Source of the DNA: Escherichia phage vB_Eco_mar004NP2
DNA length: 64,000 nt
Reading direction: 5' to 3' (one strand)
Sequence record: OR896837.1
Position numbers and translations under genes: made by a program. This document shows, piece after piece, positions 14,393 to 60,544 of the stretch; positions within the stretch are counted from its first letter, which is position 1; each line of letters starts with the position of its first letter. The notes under the pieces are model-generated. The model ran no database searches and had not been told where the DNA came from. It worked only from the letters and a program-made list of their open reading frames with translations.

Positions 14393-16960
14393 TTGAAAAT
14401 CGCAGTAGTTGATAAAGCTCTAAATAACACTCGTTATGATAAACATTTCCAGCTATACGGCGAGGAAGTTGATGTATTCCATATGTGTAACGAGAAGTTA
14501 TCCGGTCGTTTGCTCAAAAAGCATATTACTATCGGGACTCCGGAAAACCCATTTGACCCGAATGATTATGATTTTGTTATACTGGTAGGTGCCGAGCCTT
14601 TCCTGTACTTTGCAGGTAAGAAAGGCATTGGTGACTATACTGGTAAACGTGTAGAGTATAATGGATATGCTAACTGGATTGCGAGTATCAGCCCCGCCCA
14701 GTTACACTTTAAGCCTGAAATGAAACCAGTTTTCGATGCAACAGTAGAGAATATCCACGATATTATCAATGGTCGTGAGAAGATTGCAAAAGCTGGTGAT
14801 TACCGTCCTATTACTGACCCTGACGAGGCGGAAGAATATATCAAGATGGTGTATAATATGGTTATCGGACCTGTCGCATTCGACTCCGAAACCTCAGCAC
14901 TATACTGTCGAGATGGTTATCTGCTTGGTGTTTCTATGTCTCACCAAGAGTATCAGGGTGTATATATCGATTCTGATTGTCTCACAGAGGTTGCAGTATA
15001 TTATCTCCAGAAAATTCTGGATAGTGAAAACCACACTATTGTTTTTCACAACTTGAAGTTTGATATGCACTTTTATAAGTACCATCTGGGACTTACTTTT
15101 GATAAAGCACATAAAGAACGCAGGCTCCATGATACCATGTTGCAGCATTATGTTCTAGATGAGCGTCGTGGTACTCATGGCTTGAAATCTCTAGCAATGA
15201 AGTATACCGATATGGGCGACTATGACTTTGAACTAGATAAGTTCAAGGAGGATTACTGCAAAGCACATAAAATCAAGAAAGAAGATTTCACCTATGATTT
15301 AATTCCGTTTGATATTATGTGGCCTTACGCTGCAAAAGATACCGATGCCACCATACGTTTGCACAACTTCTTCTTATCAAAAATTGAGAAGAATGAAAAA
15401 CTTTGCAGTCTGTATTATGATGTCCTAATGCCTGGTTGTGTATTTCTCCAGCGTGTTGAGGATCGTGGTGTACCTATTTCTATTGATCGTTTAAAAGAAG
15501 CTCAGTACCAGTTAACCCATAATCTGAATAAGGCTCGTGAGAAACTGTATACTTATCCAGAAGTCGTTCAGCTAGAAAAAGACCAGAACGAGGCGTTTAA
15601 CCCAAACTCTGTTAAGCAACTGCGTGTTCTTCTGTTTGATTATGTTGGCTTAACTCCAACAGGTAAATTGACGGATACTGGGGCAGACTCTACAGATGCA
15701 GAAGCTCTGAATGAACTGGCTACGCAGCATCCAATTGCTAAGACTCTACTAGAGATTCGTAAGCTGACTAAGCTGATCTCTACTTATGTTGAGAAGATTC
15801 TTCTGAGTATTGATGCAGATGGTTGCATTCGTACTGGTTTCCATGAACATATGACTACTTCTGGTCGTCTGAGTTCTTCTGGTAAACTGAACCTGCAACA
15901 GTTACCTCGTGATGAATCTATTATCAAGGGTTGTGTAGTAGCTCCTCCCGGGTATCGTGTAATTGCATGGGACTTAACAACTGCGGAAGTTTATTATGCT
16001 GCTGTTCTATCTGGTGATAGAAATATGCAACAAGTATTTATCAACATGAGAAATGAACCTGATAAATACCCTGACTTCCACTCTAACATCGCACACATGG
16101 TATTTAAACTCCAATGCGAGCCTCGTGATGTTAAAAAGTTATTCCCAGCTCTGCGTCAGGCTGCTAAAGCAATCACCTTTGGTATTCTGTATGGTTCTGG
16201 CCCGGCTAAAGTAGCTCATTCTGTTAACGAAGCTCTTCTGGAACAGGCTGCTAAGACAGGTGAACCGTTTGTAGAGTGTACTGTTGCGGATGCGAAGGAC
16301 TATATCGAAACTTACTTCGGTCAGTTCCCGCAGCTTAAGCGTTGGATTGATAAGTGTCACGACCAGATCAAGAATCATGGATTTATCTATAGTCACTTTG
16401 GTCGTAAACGTCGTCTGCATAATATCCATTCCGAAGACCGTGGTGTTCAGGGTGAAGAAATCCGTTCTGGATTTAACGCAATCATTCAGTCTGCTTCTTC
16501 CGACAGTCTCCTTTTAGGTGCTGTAGATGCAGATAATGAGATCATTTCTCTTGGCCTAGAACAAGAGATGAAGATTGTTATGCTAGTTCATGACTCCGTA
16601 GTTGCTATTGTTCGTGAAGACTTGATCGACCAATACAATGAAATCCTGATTCGTAATATTCAGAAAGACCGTGGTATTAGTATTCCTGGCTGTCCGATTG
16701 GTATTGATTCAGATTCTGAAGCAGGAGGTTCTCGTGACTATTCTTGTGGTAAGATGAAGAAACAGCACCCATCAATCGCTTGTATTGATGATGATGAATA
16801 TACTCGTTATGTCAAGGGTGTATTACTTGATGCAGAGTTCGAGTATAAGAAACTAGCTGCAATGGATAAAGAGCATCCAGATCATAGCAAGTACAAGGAT
16901 GATAAGTTTATTGCTATATGTAAAGATTTGGATAACGTGAGAAGGATTCTCGGTGCTTAA
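14393..16960 (+). CDS. DNA polymerase, family A with 3'-5' exonuclease domain
   Basis: 855 aa; exonuclease motifs (VAFDSETSAL, YAAKDTDAT) and Pol-I-type polymerase motifs (RQAAKAITFGILYGSG, VMLVHDS); TTG start with AGAGGAG RBS; 855 aa matches the T5 polymerase length as I recall it. Confidence 0.95.
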   Translation: MKIAVVDKALNNTRYDKHFQLYGEEVDVFHMCNEKLSGRLLKKHITIGTPENPFDPNDYDFVILVGAEPFLYFAGKKGIGDYTGKRVEYNGYANWIASISPAQLHFKPEMKPVFDATVENIHDIINGREKIAKAGDYRPITDPDEAEEYIKMVYNMVIGPVAFDSETSALYCRDGYLLGVSMSHQEYQGVYIDSDCLTEVAVYYLQKILDSENHTIVFHNLKFDMHFYKYHLGLTFDKAHKERRLHDTMLQHYVLDERRGTHGLKSLAMKYTDMGDYDFELDKFKEDYCKAHKIKKEDFTYDLIPFDIMWPYAAKDTDATIRLHNFFLSKIEKNEKLCSLYYDVLMPGCVFLQRVEDRGVPISIDRLKEAQYQLTHNLNKAREKLYTYPEVVQLEKDQNEAFNPNSVKQLRVLLFDYVGLTPTGKLTDTGADSTDAEALNELATQHPIAKTLLEIRKLTKLISTYVEKILLSIDADGCIRTGFHEHMTTSGRLSSSGKLNLQQLPRDESIIKGCVVAPPGYRVIAWDLTTAEVYYAAVLSGDRNMQQVFINMRNEPDKYPDFHSNIAHMVFKLQCEPRDVKKLFPALRQAAKAITFGILYGSGPAKVAHSVNEALLEQAAKTGEPFVECTVADAKDYIETYFGQFPQLKRWIDKCHDQIKNHGFIYSHFGRKRRLHNIHSEDRGVQGEEIRSGFNAIIQSASSDSLLLGAVDADNEIISLGLEQEMKIVMLVHDSVVAIVREDLIDQYNEILIRNIQKDRGISIPGCPIGIDSDSEAGGSRDYSCGKMKKQHPSIACIDDDEYTRYVKGVLLDAEFEYKKLAAMDKEHPDHSKYKDDKFIAICKDLDNVRRILGA

Positions 16961-22907: not shown

Positions 22908-23390
22908 ATGGCTGTAGATAGTAGAGAGAAAGGTAAACGTGGTGAATATCAGGTAAGAGATATTCTACGCGAGCGTACAGGTCTTGAGTGGGAACGTGTT
23001 CCTGGCTCTGGTGCTTTTGGCCAGAGCCACGGACTGAAAGGTGACATCTACCTTCCACCACAAAGCGGACACATTAGTAAATACTGCTTCGAAGTTAAGT
23101 GGTATAAAGATGATAATATATCAAGTAATTTATTTAATGTCGGTGAATCCACTCTAGAGAAGTGGTGGCAGCAATGCTCACGTGAAGGTGAGCAGATGAA
23201 CTCCAAGTCTGCATTAATATTCAAAAAAGACAGAGGACAGTGGTTAATAGCTTTGGATAGCGCAGACCCGATGGTTGACAACTTAATGAGTCGTACCCAT
23301 ATGGTGTTAAATAAGAAAGACATGGAAATCGTAATTGGTTTATTTGAACCGTGGCTACATCATGCATCTGTTGAGGACTTAATTAAATAA
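22908..23390 (+). CDS. PD-(D/E)xK nuclease, putative Holliday-junction resolvase
   Basis: GDIYL...CFEVKW fits a D...E-x-K active-site arrangement; lies between SbcC-like and flap endonuclease genes. Confidence 0.45.
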   Translation: MAVDSREKGKRGEYQVRDILRERTGLEWERVPGSGAFGQSHGLKGDIYLPPQSGHISKYCFEVKWYKDDNISSNLFNVGESTLEKWWQQCSREGEQMNSKSALIFKKDRGQWLIALDSADPMVDNLMSRTHMVLNKKDMEIVIGLFEPWLHHASVEDLIK

Positions 23391-24265
23391 TGAGTAAATC
23401 CTGGGGAAAATTTATTGAAGAAGAGGAAGCTGAAATGGCTTCCCGTCGTAACCTAATGATTGTTGATGGAACTAACTTAGGCTTCCGCTTCAAACATAAC
23501 AATAGTAAAAAACCATTTGCCTCAAGTTATGTTTCCACTATTCAGTCTCTAGCAAAATCTTATTCTGCTAGAACTACAATAGTTTTAGGGGATAAAGGAA
23601 AGTCTGCATTCCGCCTAGAGCATCTTCCAGAGTATAAAGGGAATCGAGATGAGAAATACTCTCAGCGTACGGAAGAGGAAAAAGCGTTAGATGAGCAGTT
23701 TTTCGAGTATTTGAAAGATGCTTTCGAACTATGTGAAACTACATTCCCAACCTTCACTATTCGTGGTGTAGAAGCAGATGATATGGCAGCTTATATTGTT
23801 AAGCTGATTGGGCATCTATATGATCATGTTTGGCTAATTTCTACCGATGGTGACTGGGATACTTTATTAACTGATAAAGTTTCTCGCTTCTCTTTTACAA
23901 CACGTCGTGAATATCATCTTCGTGATATGTATGAGCACCATAATGTTGACGATGTAGAGCAGTTTATCTCTCTGAAAGCAATTATGGGTGATTTAGGGGA
24001 TAATATCCGTGGTGTTGAAGGTATTGGGGCAAAACGCGGGTATAATATTATTCGTGAATTTGGTAACGTTCTGGATATTATTGATCAGCTTCCACTACCT
24101 GGAAAACAGAAATATATACAGAATTTAAATGCTTCGGAAGAATTGCTTTATCGAAACCTAATTTTAGTTGATTTACCTACCTACTGTGTGGACGCTATTG
24201 CTGCTGTAGGTCAAGATGTATTAGATAAGTTTACAAAAGATATTTTGGAGATTGCAGAACAATGA
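23390..24265 (+). CDS. 5'-3' exonuclease / flap endonuclease (FEN family)
   Basis: 291 aa; N-terminal LMIVDGTNL, central GVEADDM and C-terminal H3TH-like GIGAKRG motifs; 291 aa matches the T5 D15 length as I recall it. Confidence 0.9.
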   Translation: MSKSWGKFIEEEEAEMASRRNLMIVDGTNLGFRFKHNNSKKPFASSYVSTIQSLAKSYSARTTIVLGDKGKSAFRLEHLPEYKGNRDEKYSQRTEEEKALDEQFFEYLKDAFELCETTFPTFTIRGVEADDMAAYIVKLIGHLYDHVWLISTDGDWDTLLTDKVSRFSFTTRREYHLRDMYEHHNVDDVEQFISLKAIMGDLGDNIRGVEGIGAKRGYNIIREFGNVLDIIDQLPLPGKQKYIQNLNASEELLYRNLILVDLPTYCVDAIAAVGQDVLDKFTKDILEIAEQ

Positions 24266-24708
24266 TTAAAATTAAATTAACTCATCCAGATTGTATGCCT
24301 AAGATTGGTTCCGAAGATGCCGCAGGTATGGATCTGCGAGCATTCTTTGGTACAAACCCTGCTGCAGATTTACGTGCTATTGCGCCAGGCAAATCCCTAA
24401 TGATTGACACCGGTGTCGCGGTAGAAATTCCGCGAGGTTGGTTCGGTTTGGTGGTTCCTCGTAGCTCTTTAGGTAAGCGCTATTTGATGATTGCAAACAC
24501 CGCAGGGGTGATCGACTCAGACTATCGTGGTACTATTAAGATGAACCTCTATAATTACGGTTCTGAAATGCAAACTCTGGAGAATTTCGAGAGACTTTGT
24601 CAGCTAGTGGTATTGCCACATTACTCAACTCATAATTTTGAAATCGTTGATGAGTTAGAAGAGACTGTACGTGGAGAAGGAGGATTTGGAAGTTCAGGAA
24701 GTAAGTAA
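24262..24708 (+). CDS. dut: dUTP diphosphatase
   Basis: dUTPase motifs AGMDL, PRSSLG, GVIDSDYRG and C-terminal RGEGGFGSSG. Confidence 0.9.
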   Translation: MIKIKLTHPDCMPKIGSEDAAGMDLRAFFGTNPAADLRAIAPGKSLMIDTGVAVEIPRGWFGLVVPRSSLGKRYLMIANTAGVIDSDYRGTIKMNLYNYGSEMQTLENFERLCQLVVLPHYSTHNFEIVDELEETVRGEGGFGSSGSK

Positions 24709-24732
24709 TCTACATATAAAATAAATAATAAA

Positions 24733-24770
24733 CCCCAGTGGATTTTGTCCACTGGGATTTTCTTTTATTG
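24733..24770. terminator. bidirectional rho-independent terminator between convergent early and late genes
   Basis: CCCAGTGGA-TTTTGT-CCACTGGG with T-runs on both sides. Confidence 0.7.
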
Positions 24771-25412
24771 TGATACTAATTGTACCTTTAATTGCTCAAG
24801 CTCTTTCTCTAGATCTTCAATCCGTTTAATAAGATCTTGCACAACATGCATAGTGTCAAGAAGCATTGGAGTTGTATCTAATTCCTTTTGCTCCTGCTCT
24901 ATTCCGTCATCATTATAAAATTTTCTAGTTTTTACATAAAGTGGTTCTATAGTCTCTACTTGCTGAGCAATAACCCCACGTCGGACACGAGATTTTTCAT
25001 CGTTATTATATACAAAGGATTGGAATTCTAATCCTTTTAATACCTCGATGGACTTAGTTGCGTCTATAGCCTTAATATCATGCTTTAAGCGAGAATCAGA
25101 TACAGCATTTAATTGCAAAGTATAGGTTGCTGAAGCACCTGGCCACCAAGAATAAAAATAAATACTATTATTATTCGGCTGAATTTTTAAACGCACACCA
25201 AATTTATTATCATCATCTCCCGCTACCTGCCAACAAGAATCTGCAAATGAGCCTAAGTCATTATGAATTAATCCAAAATGTGCAGATGTCTTATACCCTG
25301 CGGAAGAAGACTGGGAACCGCTCAATATACTATTAAAGTTAAATGTACTACCTATATTGACCTCGTTCTGAGAAAGAGTACCTTGTACCCAGCCAGTCTG
25401 AGACCACGCCAT
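24765..25412 (-). CDS. tail fibre distal segment with C-terminal intramolecular chaperone (S74-like) domain
   Basis: ...NAVSDSRLKHDIKAID... matches the autoproteolytic site and chaperone signature of phage fibres; the frame stays open 5' of the ATG up to 25463. Confidence 0.55.
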   Translation of the reverse strand: MAWSQTGWVQGTLSQNEVNIGSTFNFNSILSGSQSSSAGYKTSAHFGLIHNDLGSFADSCWQVAGDDDNKFGVRLKIQPNNNSIYFYSWWPGASATYTLQLNAVSDSRLKHDIKAIDATKSIEVLKGLEFQSFVYNNDEKSRVRRGVIAQQVETIEPLYVKTRKFYNDDGIEQEQKELDTTPMLLDTMHVVQDLIKRIEDLEKELEQLKVQLVSQ

Positions 25413-25431
25413 GCCAGTAACTAATCTAGCT

Positions 25432-26181
25432 TTAAAACGATCCGTTACAAAATCCCCATTTATCTACAAGCTGGGCGGAATTCGATTTACCGGTAGATTT
25501 ATTGTCTATTAGTAGTTCAGTAGAGTAGGTGCCACCAATAGTAGCTTTAGCTCGTAGTGTACTTACAGCCTCACTACTAGTACCTACTTTATACTCAGAT
25601 AGTACACTCCCGCCATAAACAGTAGTACCAGTATTAGGTTTGACAGCATCACCACTAATAACACTCCACGAAGTCTTTGCAGCCACGAACCCACCAGAAG
25701 CACGGATTACCCAGACACCTATAAAGCTGTTTGGAATAATAGTACCTTTTATTCCATAACGCCCATAAACAGGGTCCGCTAAGTTTGCATCAAAACTAAA
25801 TCCGTATTGGTTATCAGGATTAACTACGGCGAATGATTTAGATGCACCTCCAGGAGCGGCACCTAAGCCGTTTTCACCACCAATCGCCCCAATAAGACCA
25901 AATCTAGATGAATATCTATTAAGCGCTTCTTCATATGCACCAGCAATAGCGCCAGGAAAACTACCAGTAATATTGGGTGCTGCAGCTTCTGATATTGAAC
26001 CAGCTTGACCAGCATCCCCCCCCCCCCCACCGTCACCACGAGCGAATAACCCTTTGATTGAATTTAGTTGCACACCATTACGATCTGGGACGCGGAAAGT
26101 AGTGGTACCATCTCCCGTAGAATATTTCCCACGTTGTCCTACATCTGCTAACCAAACTGAATCATCTATAGCTCCAACCAT
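25432..26181 (-). CDS. tail fibre segment with phage tail-collar-like domain and glycine run
   Basis: DGQLLNRADWPELWAYA...GDGTTTFRVPDRNG is the tail-collar pattern; GGGGG is encoded by a G13 tract; the frame stays open 5' of the Met up to 26340. Confidence 0.5.
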   Translation of the reverse strand: MVGAIDDSVWLADVGQRGKYSTGDGTTTFRVPDRNGVQLNSIKGLFARGDGGGGGDAGQAGSISEAAAPNITGSFPGAIAGAYEEALNRYSSRFGLIGAIGGENGLGAAPGGASKSFAVVNPDNQYGFSFDANLADPVYGRYGIKGTIIPNSFIGVWVIRASGGFVAAKTSWSVISGDAVKPNTGTTVYGGSVLSEYKVGTSSEAVSTLRAKATIGGTYSTELLIDNKSTGKSNSAQLVDKWGFCNGSF

Positions 26182-26240
26182 TTGTGCATACGCCCAAAGT
26201 TCAGGCCAGTCAGCCCTGTTAAGAAGCTGCCCATCAGAAA

Positions 26241-26537
26241 CTACCTCATAAGGTTGAATATACGCACGGCTATCTCGAAGATGAAAATCCCCACCCCGTA
26301 GTTCATAACACCATTCATTGTGGGTCCTACTGTGCCAGTATTAAGTTTGTTCTCCACCCAACGCTTAGTTGCGGCATCATAGTCACTAACAGGATCTCCA
26401 GCAAGAGGGGTAGATCCAATAGGACGCACATTTAGCCATGCTGCACGGTCTGCTAAGTCACTCAGGTTATTATTTTTATTAAGTGACTCATTTTTAAGTT
26501 TTGTAATATCCGTAGGAATTACTGTTTTAGTTACCAT
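26241..26537 (-). CDS. tail fibre N-terminal segment
   Basis: ...DYDAATKRWVENKLNTGT... resembles fibre N-termini; the frame terminates 60 nt before the next fragment. Confidence 0.4.
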   Translation of the reverse strand: MVTKTVIPTDITKLKNESLNKNNNLSDLADRAAWLNVRPIGSTPLAGDPVSDYDAATKRWVENKLNTGTVGPTMNGVMNYGVGIFIFEIAVRIFNLMR

Positions 26538-26546
26538 TATAAAACC

Positions 26547-26825
26547 TTATGCCCATACTCTAAGAGGCTGTTCTAGCTGAACTATAAAAGGCTCGAAGGA
26601 TTCGTAAGTAAAGGATTCATCAAGAATCCTTACATTAATATAATACCCTTCATTACGGATGCATCTAGGTTCCTCATCACCTAGCGGAGAGATTTCAGTA
26701 TAAGTATATCCAATTTCGTCAAGCATTATTTGGTTTTGCAAATTTTCATTAGTATCCCACTCTATTTTTAAGAGAAAATCTTTATATGCTGATTTATCCG
26801 TGAATTTTAGGATTATATCTCTCAT
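26547..26825 (-). CDS. hypothetical protein in the tail fibre locus
   Basis: 92 aa; ATGA start/stop overlap with the upstream fibre gene. Confidence 0.35.
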   Translation of the reverse strand: MRDIILKFTDKSAYKDFLLKIEWDTNENLQNQIMLDEIGYTYTEISPLGDEEPRCIRNEGYYINVRILDESFTYESFEPFIVQLEQPLRVWA

Positions 26826-28879
26826 ACATACTCCTTCATTTGTCTATCAGTTAGTTCCTTATGCCAGATTCTAAAGTTTCTAACGTGCCCGAAAAGATGA
26901 CGTTCGCCCCTAGTTGTTTGTCCTCCAATCCTTATAGTAGCCGTTGATTGTATGTATCTCCATTCCGTTTTTGTTTCGCTTGATATTCTGGCATTACTTA
27001 CACAGCAAGTATTGTAATCACTCTTTACTCTCATTCCCATGATCATCTTTTTTAGTTTTGCATTCTCGTAAACCCTTCTGTTTGATTTACCTATATCGCA
27101 ATAAGGGAAACCATCATTATCGCCTTCGGCAGATCCGAAAGCAAGAATAATAGCCGCTTCGGTTTGATGACCTCTGGTATCAAAAACACGTGGCGCTGCA
27201 CTTGGCGTTATACTCCAGTTTTTATGAGCTTCCACAAGTACTGTAAACGGCAAATTGTAAAGGTTGTTTTTTATTGGTAATGTGACCATATCGCTTGCCC
27301 GTGTTACTGGAGTCTCTTCTGTAATAATAAACGATGAAGCGCACGCCCCGCCTTCAACTTGAGGGGTAGCTACCTGTAAGTACTCTCCACCAGAATAAGT
27401 GCCAGGTGAAACAGGTGGAGCAATTTGGATCTGAGAGCTAACCATATTATCAATAGCTTCAGATTGATATGTAACCTCGAAATAAATCCATCCATTAGAT
27501 TCTTTCTCCGCTCGGGCGGTTATTCTTGCAGCCCCTACTTCCGTTTTTCTAATGGACATATCTGTTATATTAAGATATGCATCTGCTAGATAAAAATATG
27601 CGGATCCGTCATATCTTTCAAATCTTATACGACATTGTATATTAGCACTATCGCTTTTTACACGACATGATGTTGTAACATACTTTTCAGTTCCGGTAAC
27701 ATCGACACCTCTTCCTCCTGAAATCGCAGCGATATTCATTGCCGTATTTGTCCCAATTTTTTCGTCCTTTATTTGAAACCGCCCATAAGTAAATCCAAAC
27801 TCATCAACACCACTTTCTGTTATAGTTACACTTGTTGTAGCTTCCCACTTAGATGGCGTAAGTGAGTTAAGATGATAGTTAGTTCTTTGCCCCTCAATGA
27901 GCAAACCATCCTTTTCAAATCTAGGTTCATTAATCCCCGCAACAGTTAATACACCTGATTTATTAATATATGTCGCAGTTGATGCACGTGTAAAGCTAAC
28001 AATCTTGTCACTGGGCAGTGTTATTTCCTCATCACCGACTGTTATTTTTTTTTTATAGTCTGGCGCAAAGCCGGTGATCATATCTAGAGAATCGTTAAAC
28101 GGTATCCATACATCTGGAAGAGGTTGAATGTCGGGGGTAGAATTAGCAGCAGCTTCTGATCTATCAGCCTCAGTTTTTGAACGATCGGCTTCAGTTTTAG
28201 CAGTATTAGCACTATTAGCAGCATTAGTAGCTTGTTTTCCTGCTTCAGTAGCAGAATTAGCAGCACTAGTTGCAGAATTAGCAGCTTGGTTTTTTAGCGT
28301 GGTAGTTTCTGTTATCGCGCTATTCTTAATGCCTTGTGTGTCTGTTTTTAACTGCGCAACATCTGCCTTTATAGCTGTTGTCTCTGTTACAGCACTGTTT
28401 TTAATGGCCTGAGTATCTGATTTTAGCTGCTCAACATCTGATTTTAAGCCTTGAATAGTAGTTACTGACTGACTAGCTGAAGTTGCGGAACTAGCTGCGT
28501 TATTCTCACTAGCTTTGGCTTTAGTCTCACTAGCTTTGGCTTTAGTCTCACTAGCTTTTGCATTAGTCTCGGATACTTTAGCAGCGGATGCAGATGTTGC
28601 AGCTTGTCTAGCGAATGTTTCTGCTTCATCCCTAAAACCTTTAGAATTGGCAGCAGACGCAGCAGCATTAGTCTCACTAATTTTAGCGTTAGTTTCGCTA
28701 ATTTTTGCAGCCGCAGCAGATTTAGCAGCAGCCTCTATAGAAGATACTAACTCATTAGCAGTAATAGAGCTAATAGAATTTCCAAGAGTTACTGTGTATC
28801 TAGGAAATTTACTAGCAGTAGCTTTAGTATCATCAATATTTAATATTTGTTGTACAATAATCTTAGTAGTTATTGCCAT
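26822..28879 (-). CDS. L-shaped tail fibre protein, proximal component
   Basis: 685 aa; Ala/Ser/Thr-rich repeats (SETNAKASETKAKASE), beta-rich C-terminal domain; position matches the T5 pb1 locus. Confidence 0.6.
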   Translation of the reverse strand: MAITTKIIVQQILNIDDTKATASKFPRYTVTLGNSISSITANELVSSIEAAAKSAAAAKISETNAKISETNAAASAANSKGFRDEAETFARQAATSASAAKVSETNAKASETKAKASETKAKASENNAASSATSASQSVTTIQGLKSDVEQLKSDTQAIKNSAVTETTAIKADVAQLKTDTQGIKNSAITETTTLKNQAANSATSAANSATEAGKQATNAANSANTAKTEADRSKTEADRSEAAANSTPDIQPLPDVWIPFNDSLDMITGFAPDYKKKITVGDEEITLPSDKIVSFTRASTATYINKSGVLTVAGINEPRFEKDGLLIEGQRTNYHLNSLTPSKWEATTSVTITESGVDEFGFTYGRFQIKDEKIGTNTAMNIAAISGGRGVDVTGTEKYVTTSCRVKSDSANIQCRIRFERYDGSAYFYLADAYLNITDMSIRKTEVGAARITARAEKESNGWIYFEVTYQSEAIDNMVSSQIQIAPPVSPGTYSGGEYLQVATPQVEGGACASSFIITEETPVTRASDMVTLPIKNNLYNLPFTVLVEAHKNWSITPSAAPRVFDTRGHQTEAAIILAFGSAEGDNDGFPYCDIGKSNRRVYENAKLKKMIMGMRVKSDYNTCCVSNARISSETKTEWRYIQSTATIRIGGQTTRGERHLFGHVRNFRIWHKELTDRQMKEYV

Positions 28880-29301
28880 TATCTAGTTACCCCATCACTG
28901 ATAAATACTTTACCCTCCATTATACGAAAAGAGCTAATAGCTGATCCTATGACATCTCGTGTCATAATTATATCATAGTATCCTGCAAAACGTTGGCGAG
29001 GGTTATACTTATCTCTCTCTTTGGTAGCTTTTTCACCAATATTATCTACCGCCTCTACAGGTAAACTTATAGCTATAGCACCTTGAGCAGCATCAATAAT
29101 TTTAGTAGTAAAAGATGCCAAAGTTTCCGCGTTCTCATCAAGCCCCGCCTTTATAGTACCCCTTAGGGAATACCCTGTTAAGTTAACAGGGGTATTTGTA
29201 GGTGGATAAGTACTATCATCAACATCTAAGAATTGCATCATTAGACCATAAGGTACTTTTTCATCTATTACTAAGTCTATAACTCTATTTTCAGTACTCA
29301 T
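28879..29301 (-). CDS. tail collar protein (p132-like)
   Basis: 140 aa, between the fibre and baseplate genes, matching T5 p132 by size and position. Confidence 0.45.
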
Positions 29302-29307
29302 TATTTA

Positions 29308-31380
29308 TTACCTTATATGGATATACCCACTATTTAGGTCTATCTTCATCTTGTAGTATGCCTCAGGGTTTACCGATAATGCAGCATTCTTATCATAAAT
29401 GATGTTAACACCGATCTGAGATAAGAAAGCATTTCCTGCTACAATTTTATCTGCCGTCACCGTCCCATTAACAATCATGTTTCCATGGAGAACCATTGCA
29501 GGGTTAACCCAACCAGACCCGTTCCATTGCCTTGTAAATGCTGATTGGGGGGCATTACTATTAAATTCAGTTAATACATCGTATTTAACTGGTGGAGAAC
29601 CGAAGTTACTTTGAAAGAAGGAATTAGCTTGTCCATCATCCCAACCACCTAAACCTGCTATACCTACAGAATACATCCCAGGACCACGTTGTCCATCATG
29701 CCCTATAGTACCTTCAGTACCACTCCACTGAACTACATCCGACCAGCTAGTACCCTCTAATAACCTATTAGTAACTGGATCAAGCGTACCTGTAGTGGTA
29801 TAGATATTTTGTGTCATATCTGTACGGTTAGGTGGAGTTTTTGACCAACCAGGAGGCGGATAATCTTGTTCTAGTGGTTTAGCAGGTAGAGATGTTGCTA
29901 ACTTATAAACAAATACTGTTTGCTTACCTTGCATACCAGTACCCAGATCTACATCGCCATTAGGAGTTCCAATAACTACTCCACTAGAAATACGTAGCAC
30001 ATCACCATCATAACGTATCCATTGTGTGGCGTTACCAATGTCTAGTTTAGCTTTGGCAGAAGTATTATCCATACCCATCCAAATACCGGAGTTATTATCA
30101 CCCCAAGATTTACCTTGAGTGTAAATTGCTGGATTATCCTTACCAGATAAGTTAGTCATGATAAAGTTCGCAGCATTAATATCTCTAGTAATTACTTTAC
30201 CATCAACGTTAACAACACGGTTTATAGGGTCAAAAGAAATAGGTGCTTTTCCTTCTTCATCTAGCAGACCAATGTTAATAGCACCAGTAGCTGCGTCGAT
30301 TAAGAATGTCTGTCTCCAGATTTCTCCATCTTTCATGCTGCCCTTAATAAAGGCATAGTTAACATCAATACCAGTCTCATTGACAAAGCTGTTGTCTAGA
30401 GGAGTATCTTCATTAAGTATAAACGTTACAGGAGCTGATTCTGCTATATCTTGCTTATTTGGTCCCCAGGCAATTGATGATACCTTAAAAGTATGCTCAA
30501 CTTTCCATGGGAATGATATAATCGTTGCGGCTCTGGCAGCACCAACGTTTATCTTTTGAGCTTTAGCCCAGCCAGTCTTAGAATATTCTTCAGAGTTTAT
30601 ATAAGTAACCAGAAATTCACGGACATTAGCACCAGCACCACGTTCCCAGTCCCACTCTATTCTAACATCATATCGTTCCTTACCGTCTGCGATTCGTGCA
30701 GCTTTAAAGTCAATGTTAGTAGGTGCAGTAGGTGGTACGAAATTATAAGCTACAGTGAAAACGCTAGGATATTCATAATAGCCAGATGAGTCAACTGTAA
30801 CACCATCTGGCATAGTAACTTGACCAGATATTCTGATCTTATAGTTGCCAACAGGAACACCACCAAATTTGATAGTAGGTCCCAGTGCTCCTATGTAATA
30901 TTTAACCCATTCACTATCTTCTGATGCAGTACTTTTTAATTCAATAGTGCAGTAACTAGCCTCACCAGCAGTCTCTACAACAACTATTGGAGCACCAACA
31001 CCAACGTCAACGGGTTCTGATTCAGATCTTGCTGCAGTAATTATTGGCTTTTCCTTTGTTCTAAAGTTAGTTTCATTAGAGAGGTTGATACCAATCTTAG
31101 CTTCTAGTAACTCTGAGTCAATAATTGAGTCATAGAAAGCCCCCTGAATCTCATAGGAGGTAGAGGGGGTTAAATTATTAATCATTACGAAGAAAGTATC
31201 TATACCGGTGTAATCACGTCTATCTATACTTTCTCCTATTTTTAACCAAAAAGATCTACCAATAACATCATAATCAGTATAAATGGAGTGCTGGACATAA
31301 GCCAAAGTATATCCAGTCATTATACTATTTAAGACCATTTTGGCTGGTGCATTATTTGAAATCATTAAATGGATGCCCAC
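29308..31380 (-). CDS. baseplate/central fibre protein (pb4-like)
   Basis: 690 aa beta-rich protein; by T5 gene order and size (pb4 about 688 aa as I recall). Confidence 0.5.
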   Translation of the reverse strand: MGIHLMISNNAPAKMVLNSIMTGYTLAYVQHSIYTDYDVIGRSFWLKIGESIDRRDYTGIDTFFVMINNLTPSTSYEIQGAFYDSIIDSELLEAKIGINLSNETNFRTKEKPIITAARSESEPVDVGVGAPIVVVETAGEASYCTIELKSTASEDSEWVKYYIGALGPTIKFGGVPVGNYKIRISGQVTMPDGVTVDSSGYYEYPSVFTVAYNFVPPTAPTNIDFKAARIADGKERYDVRIEWDWERGAGANVREFLVTYINSEEYSKTGWAKAQKINVGAARAATIISFPWKVEHTFKVSSIAWGPNKQDIAESAPVTFILNEDTPLDNSFVNETGIDVNYAFIKGSMKDGEIWRQTFLIDAATGAINIGLLDEEGKAPISFDPINRVVNVDGKVITRDINAANFIMTNLSGKDNPAIYTQGKSWGDNNSGIWMGMDNTSAKAKLDIGNATQWIRYDGDVLRISSGVVIGTPNGDVDLGTGMQGKQTVFVYKLATSLPAKPLEQDYPPPGWSKTPPNRTDMTQNIYTTTGTLDPVTNRLLEGTSWSDVVQWSGTEGTIGHDGQRGPGMYSVGIAGLGGWDDGQANSFFQSNFGSPPVKYDVLTEFNSNAPQSAFTRQWNGSGWVNPAMVLHGNMIVNGTVTADKIVAGNAFLSQIGVNIIYDKNAALSVNPEAYYKMKIDLNSGYIHIR

Positions 31381-34937: not shown

Positions 34938-37900
34938 TTAAGAATTTCCTAATGTTTTCAGACTAGTACCGTTCTCATTCAGAGCTAATTCCACTGCGTC
35001 TCTTAGAGCACTACTATTACTAGAAGCAAACTCTCTAAAACTTGCAGCATCCATAGCACTAATATTCAGGATGATAGGTCTTCCTGAAGTTGAGTTAGAT
35101 GAGGTTTTTAGCTCATCATTAGGCGTAGCTTTCATAGGAACCATAGGGGTAACTACTTCTGTACCATGCTCACCCATTTGATAGCTAACCCCAGGGTACA
35201 TATTACCACCTTCGGCACGCGGCACAAATGAATTAGCATTACCAATACCTTGATCACCACGTACATAAGATAGTTCTCCAGCATTAGCAGACATAGATAC
35301 ATCAATGTTCTTCTGACGCTCTCCAAGAGTTAAATAACTAGTGGTATCAGCTCCAGAATCTGCAATACTTGACATACTAGAGGCAGAGGATGCCTGCGCT
35401 AATGCCAGAGCACCTGCTAATCCTGCCGCTACCATCAGAGGGATAGAGAACGGGTATGGTACAGCTGTTGCTGCCTGCATAACTGCTACTGCAGTTTGGA
35501 TGATAATCCGCTTCTTAGCTGCATCTTGTTGAATCTTCAGCTTTTCAGCTTCTAGCTTCTTCAATTTAGCTTTAGATGCTTCTGATTTACCATCACGTTT
35601 CTGCTCCGCTGCGATAGCTGCATCAATAGCACTAACCTGTTGACTAGTACTATACTGAATCATAGAAGATACAGTTTGCATGCCAGAAGCAATCAAGGAG
35701 GTAGTATCTAGGGATCCCTGAGAGAACTGAATCATAGCGTTAGTTAAGTTACCCATACTTTGAGCCACAGCGGTTGCTTCAGAATTTAATTCAGATAGCT
35801 TAGAGATTGCTTGGTCATAAGAAGCCATTCTATTTTGCATATCAGCAAAATCTTTATCTTCTCCAGATAATCCCGTTGTAGGAGTGTACACAGCACCTAC
35901 AGAGGATCCTACCTGTTGTTGCATTTGAGCATTACGTTGCGCCGTTAAAGCAGACATTTGAGCCCTTGTCTTAGCTATTTCAGCATTCCAGCGCATTTGC
36001 TCGTTAGCATTACCTTTGGTAAGTTCCTTCATCTGAGTATAAAAATCTAACTGCATTTCCATTTTTTGCATTTCCCCTGCCAGAGGGAACATGGAAGTTA
36101 GAGTATTTTCAAAGGCTTCTTGCCTTTTACTGGTCATTTCAGCTTGCTGATCCTGACGGAATTTCCATATTTCACGTTCAATTTGAGCTTGAGAACGTCT
36201 AGACTGTTCAGCCTCTTTCTGTTTATCAGCCTGTTTTGTATACCATTCGTACTTCTCTTTTTCAATGGTCAATTCAAGATTTAACTGTGCTAGACGATAC
36301 TGAGTATCTGTCATAGTACGGTTATTTAAGAGAGCTATCTCACGATCTACGCCAAGAATTTTATCTGTGTAATCCTTGACCTTCTTCTGAGCTTCCATAC
36401 CCTGATTAGTAAGTTTAAGTTTCTCCAGCTGAATTTTTTCAATTTCTTTCTCAACAGCTTTATTTCCCTGGTTTGTTTGAAGAACACGGCGTAAAGCAGC
36501 TTCTTGCTCTTCTAACTGTTGGAGTTCTAAACGTCTACCAGCTTCCTGAGCCTTTTCCTTATCCTTAGTTTGATTATACACATCAGCTATTTTCTGTTGA
36601 ACTGCTAACTGATTTTTAGTTTCATTACCAGTTAGTTTAACATACTCAGATAGAGCCTGAGATGCAGTTTTCATTTCAGACAGGGTGTTATAACCCAGGT
36701 TAAGGTTTTTAACATATTCATCGGCACTCTTACCGGTACCTAAGGATAGAGATTCTATATTTTTTATAGCATCTGCCAAAGTAGCACTAGTTTTAGCAGC
36801 AGTATCTGTATTCTGAGCAACGTTCTGTATATCATTAGCTAAGTCACTAGCCGTTTTCTTAGTCTGATTGTACGCTTTCTGCTGCTCAGTTAGTCCTTTT
36901 AATACAGTAGAGTTAAAATCGTATACAGCATCAGGATCAGTAGTATCTCTCTGTAGATTAATTTGCTTCTGAAACTCTGGACTAGCCTTTGCAGCAGCGG
37001 CACCAGCAGCTTGATACGCTGATTTCCAAGCATTGAGATTCTCTGTAGAATCCTCTACTTCCTTACCAAGTCTAGTTACTTGTAGACCCATAGCTGCAGT
37101 TTCTGCTACAAATTGCTTATTGGCCTCCGAAGCACCTGCTGCTACAAGACCAACAGGAATACCTTCACCAACTTGACGTATAGCTAATTTTGTATAGAAA
37201 TCTGCTTGTTCCATTCGTTTATCAAACTCAGATTTTAGCTTATTACGCTTATCAAGAGATTCCTTATACATATCTAGAGCTTTATTATAGCCTTCTTCAG
37301 AAGCAGCTAAACTTAAAGCAACAGCACCAACGTTGGTAGGGTCTATCTGTCTATTAGTTTTTTCTTGGGCCCTAGCTGCTTCAGCAGATATAGAAGCCTG
37401 AGATGTATAAAATACTGTGTTGATAGCATCAATTACTGGCCCTAAATACTTAGCAGCAGCTTGTTGTATTTTTCTTAGTGCAGCATCTGCATTAGCAGCA
37501 AATTGCTCCCACGGAGTTGCACGTAGTACTTCATCTAGGTAGCCAAAACGCTTAGTAGATTCAGCAATTACCGCGTTAGCGTATGCTTGTTGCTTCTGGA
37601 AAGTGGTAAGACTATTAACATTATATGTTATACCTGTGTTTGCAGCATTTAACTGTTTAGCATAATCAGCGTATGCATCATTAAGACGGATGGTGACACC
37701 CAGCTCATCCAGAAGTTCGATTTCTTGTTTAGATACGCCCTTAATTACACGGTTAAGTGCATCAGTCATATCAATGCCAAGAACAGCAGCCGCACGACGA
37801 GCTACTAAACCAAATTTATTAAGTTGTTCGGCATCAAATCCATAAGCAGATGCTGAAGATGCCTGTCTCATTGCTTCCTCAAAAGAAATAGCATATCCAG

Positions 37901-38621
37901 CAGCTTCTTGTAGTGATCTAGCAAGGGTCTGAACAGGAGTACCTGTCTGAGTACCTACTATAACACCAAATTTTTCTAGACGATTTAGCTGATCACCTAG
38001 TTTAAGTTGTTCAAATGCTGATTGCAAAACGAAGATGTTGGAAGCAAGAGCTGCGTACATAATAGGTAGACTACCACCGATCTTAGCCATTGCCGCAAAA
38101 TCACGAGTTGCACCACGTGCTGAACCAGAAGTATTACCAATAGCTCTAGAAGCTCTACCAGCGGCACCAGCAGTATCATTAAAACCCCTAGCTGTGCCAC
38201 CTAATGCTCTATTAGTATCATATAATCTATCCTGGACTTTTTCTGTTGCAGCTGCAACATCATTACCTATTGTTTTAACAGATCTAGAAACTCCATCGAA
38301 TCCAATTTCTAGTTTATCTGTCACTTCAATAAGCTGGATAGCTAGGTAATCTAGTTTATCACCAATATCATTAATAGATTTGGTGATACCAGCCATACCC
38401 CTACTAGCTTGCATTTTAGTAAGACTTTTTGCTGCTCTGTCTGCTGCCCTCTCAATGGAATAAAGAGTTCTGGGCATTTTACCTAACTGCTCATTTGTCA
38501 GTTCGGAAGCAGCAGCAGCATTTTCCAACGCATCAGATACGTTTTCAATAGACTTTGCAGTACGAGTTGCTCCCTTCTGTTTAACGTCTATTAGTAATTC
38601 TCGTATTAGCTTATCAGTCAT
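34938..38621 (-). CDS. tail tape measure protein (pb2-like)
   Basis: 1227 aa, long Ala/Gln-rich coiled coil, hydrophobic segment near the C-terminus (VAAGLAGALALA). Confidence 0.85.
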   Translation of the reverse strand: MTDKLIRELLIDVKQKGATRTAKSIENVSDALENAAAASELTNEQLGKMPRTLYSIERAADRAAKSLTKMQASRGMAGITKSINDIGDKLDYLAIQLIEVTDKLEIGFDGVSRSVKTIGNDVAAATEKVQDRLYDTNRALGGTARGFNDTAGAAGRASRAIGNTSGSARGATRDFAAMAKIGGSLPIMYAALASNIFVLQSAFEQLKLGDQLNRLEKFGVIVGTQTGTPVQTLARSLQEAAGYAISFEEAMRQASSASAYGFDAEQLNKFGLVARRAAAVLGIDMTDALNRVIKGVSKQEIELLDELGVTIRLNDAYADYAKQLNAANTGITYNVNSLTTFQKQQAYANAVIAESTKRFGYLDEVLRATPWEQFAANADAALRKIQQAAAKYLGPVIDAINTVFYTSQASISAEAARAQEKTNRQIDPTNVGAVALSLAASEEGYNKALDMYKESLDKRNKLKSEFDKRMEQADFYTKLAIRQVGEGIPVGLVAAGASEANKQFVAETAAMGLQVTRLGKEVEDSTENLNAWKSAYQAAGAAAAKASPEFQKQINLQRDTTDPDAVYDFNSTVLKGLTEQQKAYNQTKKTASDLANDIQNVAQNTDTAAKTSATLADAIKNIESLSLGTGKSADEYVKNLNLGYNTLSEMKTASQALSEYVKLTGNETKNQLAVQQKIADVYNQTKDKEKAQEAGRRLELQQLEEQEAALRRVLQTNQGNKAVEKEIEKIQLEKLKLTNQGMEAQKKVKDYTDKILGVDREIALLNNRTMTDTQYRLAQLNLELTIEKEKYEWYTKQADKQKEAEQSRRSQAQIEREIWKFRQDQQAEMTSKRQEAFENTLTSMFPLAGEMQKMEMQLDFYTQMKELTKGNANEQMRWNAEIAKTRAQMSALTAQRNAQMQQQVGSSVGAVYTPTTGLSGEDKDFADMQNRMASYDQAISKLSELNSEATAVAQSMGNLTNAMIQFSQGSLDTTSLIASGMQTVSSMIQYSTSQQVSAIDAAIAAEQKRDGKSEASKAKLKKLEAEKLKIQQDAAKKRIIIQTAVAVMQAATAVPYPFSIPLMVAAGLAGALALAQASSASSMSSIADSGADTTSYLTLGERQKNIDVSMSANAGELSYVRGDQGIGNANSFVPRAEGGNMYPGVSYQMGEHGTEVVTPMVPMKATPNDELKTSSNSTSGRPIILNISAMDAASFREFASSNSSALRDAVELALNENGTSLKTLGNS

Positions 38622-38633
38622 GTTTTATTTTTC

Positions 38634-38669
38634 CCAATAAAAAAGGCTCTGGGCAAATCACCCAGAGCC
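38634..38669 (-). terminator. rho-independent terminator fused to a conserved motif upstream of the tape measure gene
   Basis: Minus strand GGCTCTGGG-TGATTTG-CCCAGAGCC then TTTTTTATTGGGAAAAATAAAAC-ATG. Confidence 0.6.
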
Positions 38670-38704
38670 AAGCCTCATCGTGGAACGCCCATTGGAGGAA
38701 ACTT

Positions 38705-39073
38705 TTACCGTGCACGAGATCTAGCATGTGGCTTAACGTTAGGAATCCTTCCGTTTTGCGGTTTATGCTTCTCAGCACGTTTACGTGCAGCATCTACAGC
38801 TTTAGCATCAAATATATTGATAATGTGTAGAACAAATTCTTTCTCTATAGGATCAGTAATCCCATAAATATCAAATAAAACACCTAGAGCAGCCTTATCT
38901 TTACCTATAAAGATAGGAAAGTCACCTGGTATGAAGCAGTCAATTAGACTGTTATAAATATTCATACTAGTAGCCACAATAGGTGGAAAGTCTTCAAGTT
39001 CAACAGGCATGGCCTTAGGATCAGGCTCTATACCCATTGATTCACAAAGTATTAAATATTGTTGTTTAGTCAT
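38705..39073 (-). CDS. tail assembly chaperone (putative)
   Basis: 122 aa, between the tail tube and tape measure genes (position of G/GT-type chaperones). Confidence 0.4.
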   Translation of the reverse strand: MTKQQYLILCESMGIEPDPKAMPVELEDFPPIVATSMNIYNSLIDCFIPGDFPIFIGKDKAALGVLFDIYGITDPIEKEFVLHIINIFDAKAVDAARKRAEKHKPQNGRIPNVKPHARSRAR

Positions 39074-39134
39074 TTTAGATGCTGAGCTTTTAATACACTT
39101 ATCTGCAAAATCAGCAACAGCATCTAGGAGTTCT

Positions 39135-40434: not shown

Positions 40435-40438
40435 TTAA

Positions 40439-60314: not shown

Positions 60315-60544
60315 TTAAAGGTTATATTGATACGCCGATTGGTCGGGTAGTTATTGCTAACCTGCTGAGCGTAGCGGTTGACCAGTACGCCCCGAATAAC
60401 CAGAAAGCGAAAGCGGTAGCAGGCGCAGCTATGGAAGCGGCAATGCTAGAAATGGTGCAAAGTTTTAACATCGCTGAAATGATTGATGAAATGGTGAAAG
60501 GTATCGATATTTCTACTTTTACCACTAGCACCGAAAGCGAGTAA
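60311..60544 (+). CDS. hypothetical protein
   Basis: 77 aa; ATGA coupling. Confidence 0.45.
   Translation: MIKGYIDTPIGRVVIANLLSVAVDQYAPNNQKAKAVAGAAMEAAMLEMVQSFNIAEMIDEMVKGIDISTFTTSTESE

Follow-up and report, generated by a model that had tools for sequence, protein, structure and literature searches.

The three adjacent minus-strand open reading frames at 24765-26537 of the T5-like phage CPL00229 follow one another as parts of a single lateral (side) tail fibre gene of the LtfB type, and the copy in this isolate is a pseudogene of the LtfB family, not a functional member. We consider it probable that this gene, the second of the lateral tail fibre genes, is genuinely broken by two frameshifts and that the loss was tolerated on a rough laboratory host.

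Three open reading frames are pieces of one fibre gene

The sequence analysed here (the window) is a stretch of 64,000 nucleotides of record OR896837.1. Its source isolate is CPL00229 of the Citizen Phage Library, and the record bears the name 'vB_Eco_mar004NP2', that of a phage whose original sequence keeps the gene intact. The fibre gene and its three fragments, deposited for CPL00229 as WWD13551-3, are as follows.

24765..26537, minus strand: whole LtfB-type lateral tail fibre gene, 1773 nt, a pseudogene here and collinear with single CDSs in relatives
26241..26537, minus strand: fragment 1, 98 aa (WWD13553.1)
25432..26340, minus strand: fragment 2, first ATG at 26181, 249 aa from there (26181..25432; WWD13552.1)
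24765..25463, minus strand: fragment 3, first ATG at 25412, 215 aa from there (25412..24765; WWD13551.1)

An earlier note on this DNA had read the three frames as parts of a single fibre protein, and the profile matches agree: fragment 1 covers positions 153-237 of PHROG 6921, fragment 2 positions 235-497 and fragment 3 positions 545-735, while an intact homologue matches the same family with an E value of 4.6e-180. The top PHROG 6921 match in the annotation of one relative is KM979355_p107. Because the alignment begins only at position 153 of the 738-position profile, the N-terminal region of LtfB seems to be absent. The coordinates, the strand and the overlaps between the open frames (26244-26340 and 25435-25463) that had been given for the three pieces are exact, with fragment 2 open over 26340..25435 and fragment 3 over 25463..24768. 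Fragment 1 consists of 82 native N-terminal residues followed by 16 out-of-frame residues and ends at a TAG at 26241-26243. Fragment 2 carries a collar-like motif, a Gly run and a shaft. Fragment 3 holds the fibre tip and a C-terminal Peptidase_S74 intramolecular chaperone (about 24942-25100), which matches PF13884 with an E value of 1.2e-12 and 48.3 bits against a Pfam cut-off of 22; the chaperone region of PDB entry 6f45 also aligns. The chaperone label of the earlier note holds, but its 'tail-collar' label depends on a Pfam match of 17.7 bits, below the cut-off of 24. The glycine run that it mentioned is encoded by a 13-base poly-G tract at 26016-26028.

The gene lies at the end of the ltf locus and is convergent with the dUTPase gene; upstream of it come ltfC and then the proximal fibre gene. 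This order is found in the window and in 12 annotated relatives. The neighbouring features are listed here.

24730..24760, both strands: hairpin resembling an intrinsic terminator in both directions, placed between the fibre and dUTPase genes, with a 13-pair stem (minus) and a 10-pair stem (plus)
26547..26825, minus strand: intact 92-aa gene, PHROG 1361, always between the two fibre genes
26822..28879, minus strand: intact proximal lateral fibre protein, LtfA-like, 685 aa, with a T5 Ltf-like N-terminus
28879..29301, minus strand: intact LtfC-like fibre attachment or assembly protein, 140 aa (Pfam PF23926 LtfC, E value 8.4e-15)

The 92-aa protein may be an adaptor or a chaperone. Fragment 1 is closely coupled to its gene and is the only piece with a plausible ribosome-binding site, AAGG, ahead of it. 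The idea that each frame is expressed on its own was considered and rejected, since the internal ATGs at 26181 and 25412 both lack a Shine-Dalgarno sequence and the frame boundaries are common to no relative. In PMBT29, ltfC has separately lost 2 nt from an (AG)n run.

Two single-nucleotide indels break the reading frame

Comparison with relatives places the lesions at the following sites.

26289..26292, minus strand: frameshift 1 (−1), GGGG here against GGGGG in relatives, codon 83
25459..25461, minus strand: frameshift 2 (+1), AA to AAA (TTT on the plus strand), codon ~359
26439..26447, minus strand: in-frame loss of one GCA from (GCA)3
26016..26028, minus strand: poly-G tract, 13 bases long (C13 when read on the plus strand), that encodes the Gly run, the longest G/C homopolymer of the window

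At the first junction, the five relatives of at least 94% identity that have this run carry G5 (in the context GGGGTGGGGG), and more distant relatives read GGTGTTGGTG. A homopolymer does lie near the place proposed for this junction, although CCCCACCCC occupies 26289-26297 and not 26291-26299. At the second junction, GAT AAT GGG of the relatives has become GAT AAA TGG by one extra A; the CCCC run at 25454-25457 is present as described, but the indel sits in the adjoining TTT/AAA. The two indels cancel each other, so fragments 1 and 3 share a frame from which fragment 2 is shifted. The original frame contains 16 stops, and the gene is read as three frames rather than one continuous ORF. As had been anticipated, one change of a single base at each junction fuses the frames: adding one G and removing one A yields a 590-aa ORF with 588 of 588 aligned residues identical to LtfB of mar004NP2. 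Both 1-nt indels are found in the window alone (0 of 12 relatives), and the suggested comparison with intact homologues returned one continuous ORF at this position in 11 of the 12 (573-590 aa; CDS of 1722-1773 nt). The GCA loss deletes one Ala of the motif DRAAAWLNVRP, which is invariant in the 12 relatives and in LtfA of DT57C.

Indels are concentrated in this locus. Outside locally divergent stretches, four 1-nt indels separate the window from SPLA5b in ~49.5 kb of alignment, and two of these fall within the 1.77-kb fibre gene (P = 0.007). When indel events are counted, 4 of 11 are in the LtfB-type gene (P = 4e-4) and 7 of 11 in both fibre genes (P = 4e-6). The changes in the LtfA-like gene are all in-frame, namely a 333-nt loss in 21-nt repeats and an A7 to A10 expansion at 28045-28054, and the two longest homopolymers of the window both lie within the fibre genes. 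Relative to mar004NP2, the LtfB-type gene has four slippage-type indels and no substitutions. Neutral drift during a few passages would yield fewer, which counts against the pseudogene account.

Sequencing error, recoding and a mixed population

Three causes had been offered for the split: a sequencing error, a real inactivating mutation and frameshift-controlled expression. The real mutation is the supported one, with lesions that are unique to the isolate and also present in an independent assembly. If instead the gene were really intact, both 1-nt indels would be homopolymer errors in the consensus, which we judge very unlikely. Both do lie in homopolymer contexts with a G13 tract between them that is challenging for any platform, the reads were error-corrected with Tadpole before assembly, and a third gene of the window, encoding DUF7566, is likewise split by a 1-nt difference. 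However, CPL00229 was sequenced with Illumina NovaSeq 2x150 reads (assembled with Shovill), and consensus-level miscalls of G4/G5 or A2/A3 runs are rare with Illumina chemistry. An independent de Bruijn assembly of run SRR27112525 by Logan matches the window over 5.5 kb: contig SRR27112525_10 (5498 bp) is an exact substring corresponding to 23031-28528, contains the same 98-, 249- and 215-aa genes and spans all the indel sites. Moreover, homopolymer lengths agree with those of relatives nearly everywhere, since no more than 5 of about 800 runs of at least four bases differ and about 780 outside the gene are concordant. The adjacent LtfA-like gene carries in-frame indels only, as expected of real, selected variation, and the DUF7566 split occurs as a separately annotated 77-aa ORF in T5, pork27 and AZ23 too, so that it seems to be a natural allele and not an error. 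We also considered and rejected error at homopolymers throughout the genome, as indels were rare beyond the fibre locus in the ~49.5 kb of the window aligned to mar004NP2 and SPLA5b.

Another reading is that ribosomal frameshifting or reversible slippage at the two junctions sets the level of the fibre and hence the host range. In its favour, the native sequence would be recovered exactly at junction 1 if the ribosome slipped by −1 in the P site on G GGG A, the two indels sum to zero shift, and hypermutable repeats in phage genes have a precedent (PMC12633550). Yet the split is not conserved, with neither indel in any of the 12 relatives and a single frame in every intact one, and the junction runs (G4 and A3) are far shorter than repeats linked to hypermutability. 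The junctions have no canonical X XXY YYZ heptamer, and the downstream RNA is no more folded than shuffled sequence (z = 0.06 and 0.07). A scan of 24000-29500 against Rfam returned no RNA element, the sole match being a far sub-threshold isrG. Two independent low-efficiency events would be needed, the second of which also changes N to K, and the stop at 26241-26243 follows soon after the first shift. Hence we regard recoding at the junctions as extremely improbable, even more so than a sequencing error.

A third reading would leave the broken allele as the consensus of a stock in which a substantial subpopulation is intact or has another G-tract length, making the stock phenotypically heterogeneous. 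Long homopolymers such as G13 are expected to slip frequently. One stock of Golomidova et al. gave ~30% LTF-less plaques. Logan assembled this run in fragments, and the fibre gene is on a 5.5-kb contig. Against this, the contig is unbroken through all four indel sites, one of its ends is accounted for by 21-nt tandem repeats, and the phage was purified before sequencing. The end so explained is the one opposite 23031, where the repeats lie in the LtfA-like gene; within the window, no repeat was found that would explain the end near 23031. The agreement with Logan is at the level of contigs, in whose construction bubbles (minority alleles) can be popped. A mixed stock seems unlikely, somewhat less so than a consensus error.

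A variable poly-G tract

The poly-G tract differs from the two junctions in that its length varies among genomes, whereas the junction runs vary in no other genome. SPLA5b has G10; mar004NP2, PMBT29, phC17 and two metagenome contigs have G7; KS_S14 has G6 and is frameshifted; G8 is inferred from the protein of P0013; and JLBYU40 reads G5AG. Lengths of 13, 10, 7, 6 and an inferred 8 thus occur across genes of at least 94% identity and include out-of-frame states. G13 reaches the length of hypermutable repeats (6-8 bases or more), which the G4 and A3 runs do not. Exact-pattern scans of public collections added one IMG/VR contig and one ENA gut contig, both with G7; the other hits (19 of 19 in genome_contigs and 17 of 18 in metagenomes) were discarded as chance matches in GC-rich bacteria. 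An exact look-up of the truncated products predicted in the mar004NP2 background found none for G5, G8, G9, G11, G12 or G14; the single product present was that of G6, which KS_S14 and its relatives have.

From its length variation, the tract is a candidate hypermutable switch and the sole plausibly switch-like element of the gene. It is possible, if rather doubtful, that it acts as a contingency locus of T5-like phages, in which slippage would toggle the O-antigen-binding branch, or tune the Gly linker in steps of three bases, and so maintain a standing mix of host ranges. If so, the clustering of lesions in ltf would reflect a locally raised, selectable indel rate and not simple decay. For phase variation of host recognition in a phage family that is well studied, the variable tract offers a candidate that can be tested cheaply.

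Isolation history and host range

For the double-frameshift pseudogene that we favour, the proposed course is that a gene of 590 codons was disrupted when replication slipped at two very short runs, with G5 becoming G4 at codon 83 and AA becoming AAA at codon ~359. Ribosomes that begin at the native start would stop at the TAG at 26241-26243 and make a 98-aa stub. No functional fibre is expected, because the middle and C-terminal pieces lack a ribosome-binding site and are also missing either the chaperone for folding at the C-terminus or the N-terminal region for attachment. Virions would then probably miss the O-antigen-binding branch of the fibre while keeping the LtfA-like protein and the FhuA/BtuB-type central receptor-binding protein.

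CPL00229 was isolated on the O-antigen-less E. coli strain BW25113 after two liquid enrichments, and since enrichment and propagation both used this rough K-12 strain, losing the fibre would have cost nothing, and selection may even have favoured it. O-antigen-less hosts can be infected without lateral fibres of the T5 type, and LTF-less mutants reportedly arise or are selected on them at very high frequency; ltfB knockouts of DT57C and DT571/2 are normal on laboratory strains; LTF function was lost in about 30% of C600 plaques; and ltf mutants on O-antigen hosts give inhibition in spots without plaques (PMC4728585). Other Tequintaviruses of the library that were isolated in the same manner, Baret and Stokescottia, retain an intact gene, which counts against this account. 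On the clinical E. coli strain BPRG1486, CPL00229 produced a lysis zone with no plaques or growth, whereas Baret, with its intact fibre gene, reached 8 × 10^6 PFU/mL. Lysis without plaques fits fibre loss, and the link to host range is circumstantial: two unrelated phages of the library show the same phenotype, and the LtfA-like protein also differs from that of relatives.

The knockout could explain why CPL00229 clears spots on a clinical strain without propagating. In a therapy library, fewer hosts would be usable if isolation on rough K-12 had silently produced or enriched a knockout of an O-antigen-binding fibre, and the case would be a further example of isolation on a laboratory host selecting against the lateral fibres of T5-like phages. 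For annotation, the three GenBank 'tail fiber protein' entries WWD13551-3 are fragments of one dead gene.

Comparison with known systems

Classical T5 mutants without L-shaped fibres are a long-standing parallel. The nearest characterised relatives are the LtfB proteins of the branched fibres of DT57C and DT571/2 (Golomidova et al. 2016, PMC4728585; Ayala et al. 2023, PMC10713586), which are likewise encoded by the second gene of a two-gene ltf locus, the last before dUTPase. The DT571/2 protein shares PHROG 6921 with the gene described here (the family includes DT571/2 p107), both LtfB proteins end in a C-terminal Peptidase_S74 chaperone, and both are dispensable and readily lost on rough laboratory hosts. 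The orthologue in mar004NP2 was named ltfB by Michniewski et al. (PMC6563131). In contrast to LtfB of DT57C and DT571/2, the first ~150 residues appear from the profile alignment to be absent, including the phiEco32 gp15-like segment (~45 aa) that docks onto LtfA, and residues 14-369 are partly near-identical to the middle of DT57C LtfA (8hqz_d residues 526-874). The locus also differs in that the partner is a different fibre of 685 aa, the genes for the two fibres are separated by one of 92 aa, and the LtfB-type gene is broken in CPL00229.

A second comparison is with T5-like phages that lost their LTFs spontaneously during growth on K-12, namely delA198 in LtfA of DT57C and the ltfA-ltfB fusion deletion of DT530(1). 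There too, function was lost on O-antigen-less hosts, O-antigen strains show a lysis zone without plaques, and the lesions include small indels, among them a 3-bp Ala deletion. CPL00229 differs in combining two frameshifts with an Ala deletion, in the second fibre gene.

Some Campylobacter phages have hypermutable poly-G tracts in their receptor-binding genes. As in phage contingency loci, a long G homopolymer lies here in a host-recognition gene, its length varies from one near-identical genome to another, and some lengths are out of frame (G6 in KS_S14 and P0049, G8 in P0013). The likeness concerns G13 and not the two junctions that the earlier note had flagged; in CPL00229 the gene is inactivated before the tract is reached, and any switching is a candidate one. 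In T2 and T4, bet-hedging is driven by SSRs (Gomez, Barrick and Waters 2025, PMC12633550), which are under-represented in tail-fibre genes (PMC12633550). A further parallel is the fibre gene of E. coli phage KS_S14 (LC788706), which is 99.4% identical over the locus and in which a frameshift has likewise produced separately annotated CDSs; its single break is at the poly-G tract (G6) and at neither of the two sites of CPL00229. Set against these systems, the knockout is the known, ordinary fate of a dispensable side tail fibre gene, and the change in poly-G length between near-identical phages is the more interesting detail.

Three open reading frames are the pieces of one lateral tail fibre gene

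The window belongs to a T5-like phage (Tequintavirus), and its distal tail fibre gene (24765..26537, minus strand) appears in the ORF listing as three fragments; a terminator hairpin follows the last of them.

26537..26241 (-): fragment 1, 98 aa
26181..25432 (-): fragment 2, 249 aa
25412..24765 (-): fragment 3, 215 aa
24730-24760: strong bidirectional terminator hairpin with a 13-pair stem, between the convergent fibre and dUTPase genes

A six-frame read gave minus-strand open stretches at 26546-26244, 26340-25435 and 25463-24768, with fragments 1 and 3 in a common frame; the overlaps, 26244-26340 and 25435-25463, are exactly those reported in an earlier note, which took the ORFs for parts of one protein. 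This reading holds, since the fragments match consecutive segments of the PHROG 6921 profile (positions 153-237, 235-497 and 545-735) and relatives carry a single CDS. Fragment 3 contains a Peptidase_S74 intramolecular chaperone (PF13884, E 1.2e-12). The tail-collar domain that the note also named has a Pfam match, but a sub-threshold one, and the glycine run is indeed encoded there, by a 13-base poly-G tract at 26016-26028.

A megablast search with 24700-26900 returned five phage records at 99.3-99.5% identity, namely SPLA5b, mar004NP2 (twice: LR027384, NC_048205), KS_S14 and PMBT29, and many further matches at 83-95%. The comparison with intact homologues proposed in the note revealed one continuous CDS of 1722-1773 nt at the equivalent position in SPLA5b, mar004NP2, PMBT29, JLBYU40, IrisVonRoten, Baret, T5_ev219, phC17, FGS017, SIA3lw and Es2. 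An intact gene is the rule, because only four records among the best 60 tblastn rows have it in more than one piece. Alignment to the relatives located four differences in the window's gene.

near 26444 (-): GCA lost from (GCA)3, in frame, removing one Ala from the invariant DRAAAWLNVRP motif
26289-26292 (-): frameshift 1 (-1), GGGGG to GGGG
26016-26028 (-): G tract of 13 bases, versus 10, 7 or 6 in relatives
25459-25461 (-): frameshift 2 (+1), GAT AAT to GAT AAA T

Neither single-base change was found in any of the 12 relatives. Inserting one G and removing one A fused the three frames into a single 590-aa ORF, identical to mar004NP2 LtfB at 588/588 aligned residues; the only departures from LtfB are two additional Gly and the absent Ala. 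The suggestion of a single gene with a +/-1 event at each junction is therefore correct. The second event falls in the A run adjacent to the CCCC, outside the CCCC itself, and CCCCACCCC, previously placed at 26291-26299, is at 26289-26297.

The intact homologue is a fibre protein of 589-590 aa. Its residues 14-369 align to residues 526-874 of DT57C LtfA (PDB 8hqz chain d, an entry identified in PMC10713586; E 2.8e-135 for the whole chain, first ~100 residues nearly identical), and its C-terminus aligns to chaperone-bearing fibre tips. Its PHROG includes DT571/2 gp107, which is LtfB, and the mar004NP2 gene was named an ltfB orthologue by Michniewski et al. (PMC6563131). The locus order is pb4, an LtfC-like gene (PF23926), a 685-aa proximal fibre with a T5 Ltf-like N-terminus, a conserved 92-aa gene, the fibre gene, the bidirectional terminator and, on the opposite strand, dUTPase. 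Position, homology and the chaperone domain all support placing the gene in the LtfB family. DT57C LtfB has a gp15-like docking segment, whereas the window's gene apparently lacks one, since the profile match begins at position 153.

The LtfA-like proximal fibre (26822-28879) differs in shaft length among isolates: it has 685 aa in the window, 796 aa in both mar004NP2 and SPLA5b, and 557 aa in KS_S14. A 333-nt change, in frame and located in 21-nt (7-aa) tandem repeats at about 28192-28285, 28500-28570 and 28664-28709, underlies the difference. Records OR848352, OR847733 and MG065692, named Listeria phage LM 4-14-1, Listeria phage LM 4-11-1 and Campylobacter phage C13, contain this T5-type fibre gene at 60-92% identity and are probably mislabelled or contaminated.

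The frameshifts are present in the sequenced DNA

An exact-sequence look-up identified fragments 1, 2 and 3 as GenBank WWD13553, WWD13552 and WWD13551, from a record of 98,746 bp that bears the name vB_Eco_mar004NP2 and CPL00229 locus tags. This record (WWD13551-WWD13602) derives from an independent UK freshwater isolate, CPL00229, which shares 94-99.7% identity with the original mar004NP2. The fragments were entered as three separate 'tail fiber protein' entries without a pseudogene flag.

Of the causes raised in the earlier note, sequencing or assembly error is unlikely. Logan contig SRR27112525_10, an independent assembly from the public read set, carries the same three fragment genes; its 5,498 bp are an exact substring of the window (23031-28528), so that the G4, G13, AAA and GCA loss are all reproduced. 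Citizen Phage Library (CPL) phage DNA was sequenced by Illumina NovaSeq (2x150), with Tadpole correction and Shovill assembly (PMC10893117). In an alignment with mar004NP2 and SPLA5b that covered ~49.5 kb of the window, about 800 homopolymers reached at least 4 bases, and no more than 5 of these differed in length. Outside locally divergent stretches, only four single-base indels separate the window from SPLA5b: one intergenic (18813), one at 60302 and two in the fibre gene, which makes up 3.6% of the aligned sequence (P = 0.007). Considering all indel events, 4/11 fall in the fibre gene (P = 4e-4) and 7/11 in the two lateral-fibre genes (P = 4e-6). The adjacent LtfA-like gene has in-frame changes only (the 333-nt repeat loss, A7 to A10 and one 3-nt indel), a signature of real variation filtered by selection. 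The frameshifts are thus present in the DNA that was sequenced, at the level of the assembly consensus, and a minority intact allele may accompany the broken one. A real inactivating mutation, the second cause considered, agrees with their reproduction in the Logan contig and their uniqueness against the 12 relatives.

Other disparities occur along the window. A DUF7566 protein that is whole (330 aa) in mar004NP2, SPLA5b and Baret is divided in the window into 253 and 77 aa (59553-60314 and 60311-60544), owing to a 1-nt difference near 60302 (T6 to T5 plus C>G); this may be a natural allele, because separately annotated 77-aa ORFs that cluster with the piece (at least 90% identity) exist in T5 (ORF012/ORF163), pork27 and AZ23. 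The original mar004NP2 record is one base short at the equivalent of window position ~48353 (15323-15996 in the mar004NP2 sequence compared), leaving in two CDSs an endonuclease gene that is intact (675 nt) in the window and SPLA5b. Region 36181-40453 (tail tube, tape measure) is only 94% identical to mar004NP2 and SPLA5b, with flanks at 98.8-99.7%, and reads as a mosaic, recombinant block.

The third cause, frameshift-controlled expression, fares no better. The split is conserved in none of the 12 relatives aligned, the junction runs are short (G4 and A3), and a TAG at 26241-26243 ends the frame 16 codons past the first shift. Predicted RNA structure in the 86 nt downstream of each junction was no better than in shuffled sequence (z = 0.06, 0.07). 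The native start, 9 nt beyond the upstream gene, is preceded by AAGG, whereas neither internal ATG (26181, 25412) has a Shine-Dalgarno sequence. At junction 1, the native sequence could be regained by a -1 P-site slip on G GGG A, but an unfavourable +1 event would also be required at junction 2, and any rescue should therefore be negligible. A recoding device was therefore rejected.

Compared with mar004NP2, the fibre gene has four slippage-type indel events and zero substitutions, as does the whole of 24758-26909 for substitutions. This is above the neutral-drift expectation for a few passages: either the lesions are older than isolation, or selection favoured the loss, or this gene is unusually prone to slippage. 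One speculative reason for a second frameshift and an Ala deletion to follow a first knockout is that truncating the gene early might relieve a harmful, chaperone-less partial product.

A variable poly-G tract

The poly-G tract (C13 on the plus strand) is the only G/C homopolymer of at least 7 bases in the 64 kb, where about 3e-5 runs of at least 13 G's are expected from base composition.

Table. Tract length among fibre genes of at least 94% identity
G13: window
G10: SPLA5b
G8 (inferred): P0013, out of frame
G7: mar004NP2, PMBT29, phC17, one IMG/VR contig, one human-gut contig
G6: KS_S14, P0049, out of frame
G5AG: JLBYU40

The two longest homopolymers of the window, C13 and T10 (28045-28054), both lie within lateral-fibre genes and exceed those of relatives by multiples of three. 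T10 (A10 on the coding strand of the LtfA-like gene, versus A7 in mar004NP2 and SPLA5b) adds an in-frame Lys. The length pattern fits a hypermutable tract whose reading frame is under selection, making it a candidate switch or linker and a testable candidate contingency locus. In CPL00229 the tract has no bearing on expression, since the gene is already inactivated upstream. Poly-G tracts occur in receptor-binding genes of Campylobacter phages. Hypermutable repeats have been described in T2/T4 phage genes (PMC12633550), and our literature search found no hypermutable poly-G tract described for T5-like fibres.

Loss of the fibre is tolerated on rough hosts

Other copies are broken too. That of KS_S14 is interrupted at G6, P0049 is a 223-aa G6-type fragment of a different lineage, and P0013 is a 421-aa fragment whose start, MTVGGDAG, implies G8; several more truncated N-terminal fragments occur on 58-71-kb Logan contigs. 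In PMBT29, ltfC (269-689 of the PMBT29 sequence compared; window equivalent 28879-29301) has lost 2 nt in an (AG)n run, AGAGAGAGA, giving two annotated CDSs; the lateral-fibre locus of this phage, which is 99.3% identical, thus also contains a break of the slippage type. Ayala et al. noted a frameshift in the T5 LtfC reference sequence (PMC10713586).

We conclude that two frameshifts have turned a dispensable lateral tail fibre gene into a genuine pseudogene in this phage, which was isolated on rough K-12; the split is neither a recoding device nor an assembly error. The three GenBank entries should be corrected to one broken gene, and the case is a caution for phage libraries isolated on laboratory hosts. 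E. coli BW25113 is a K-12 derivative without O-antigen. It was the isolation host of the CPL E. coli phages, CPL00229 among them (PMC10893117), and the screening protocol included two overnight liquid enrichments.

In DT571/2, ltfB and ltfA knockouts grow normally on laboratory and rough strains (Golomidova et al., PMC4728585). LTF function was spontaneously lost in about 30% of plaques from E. coli C600, and during routine propagation the ltf locus acquired a 3-bp deletion that removed one Ala, or a deletion by recombination (PMC4728585). On O-antigen-bearing hosts the LTF mutants gave spot growth inhibition and no plaques (PMC4728585). CPL00229 behaved similarly on the clinical strain BPRG1486: it produced a clear zone during screening but neither plaques nor suppression of growth, whereas a titre of 8e6 PFU/mL was attained by Baret, a CPL Tequintavirus whose gene is intact (PMC10893117). 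The match is circumstantial, because two unrelated CPL phages gave the same phenotype. Loss of the fibre gene in CPL00229 is a new instance of the well-documented phenomenon.
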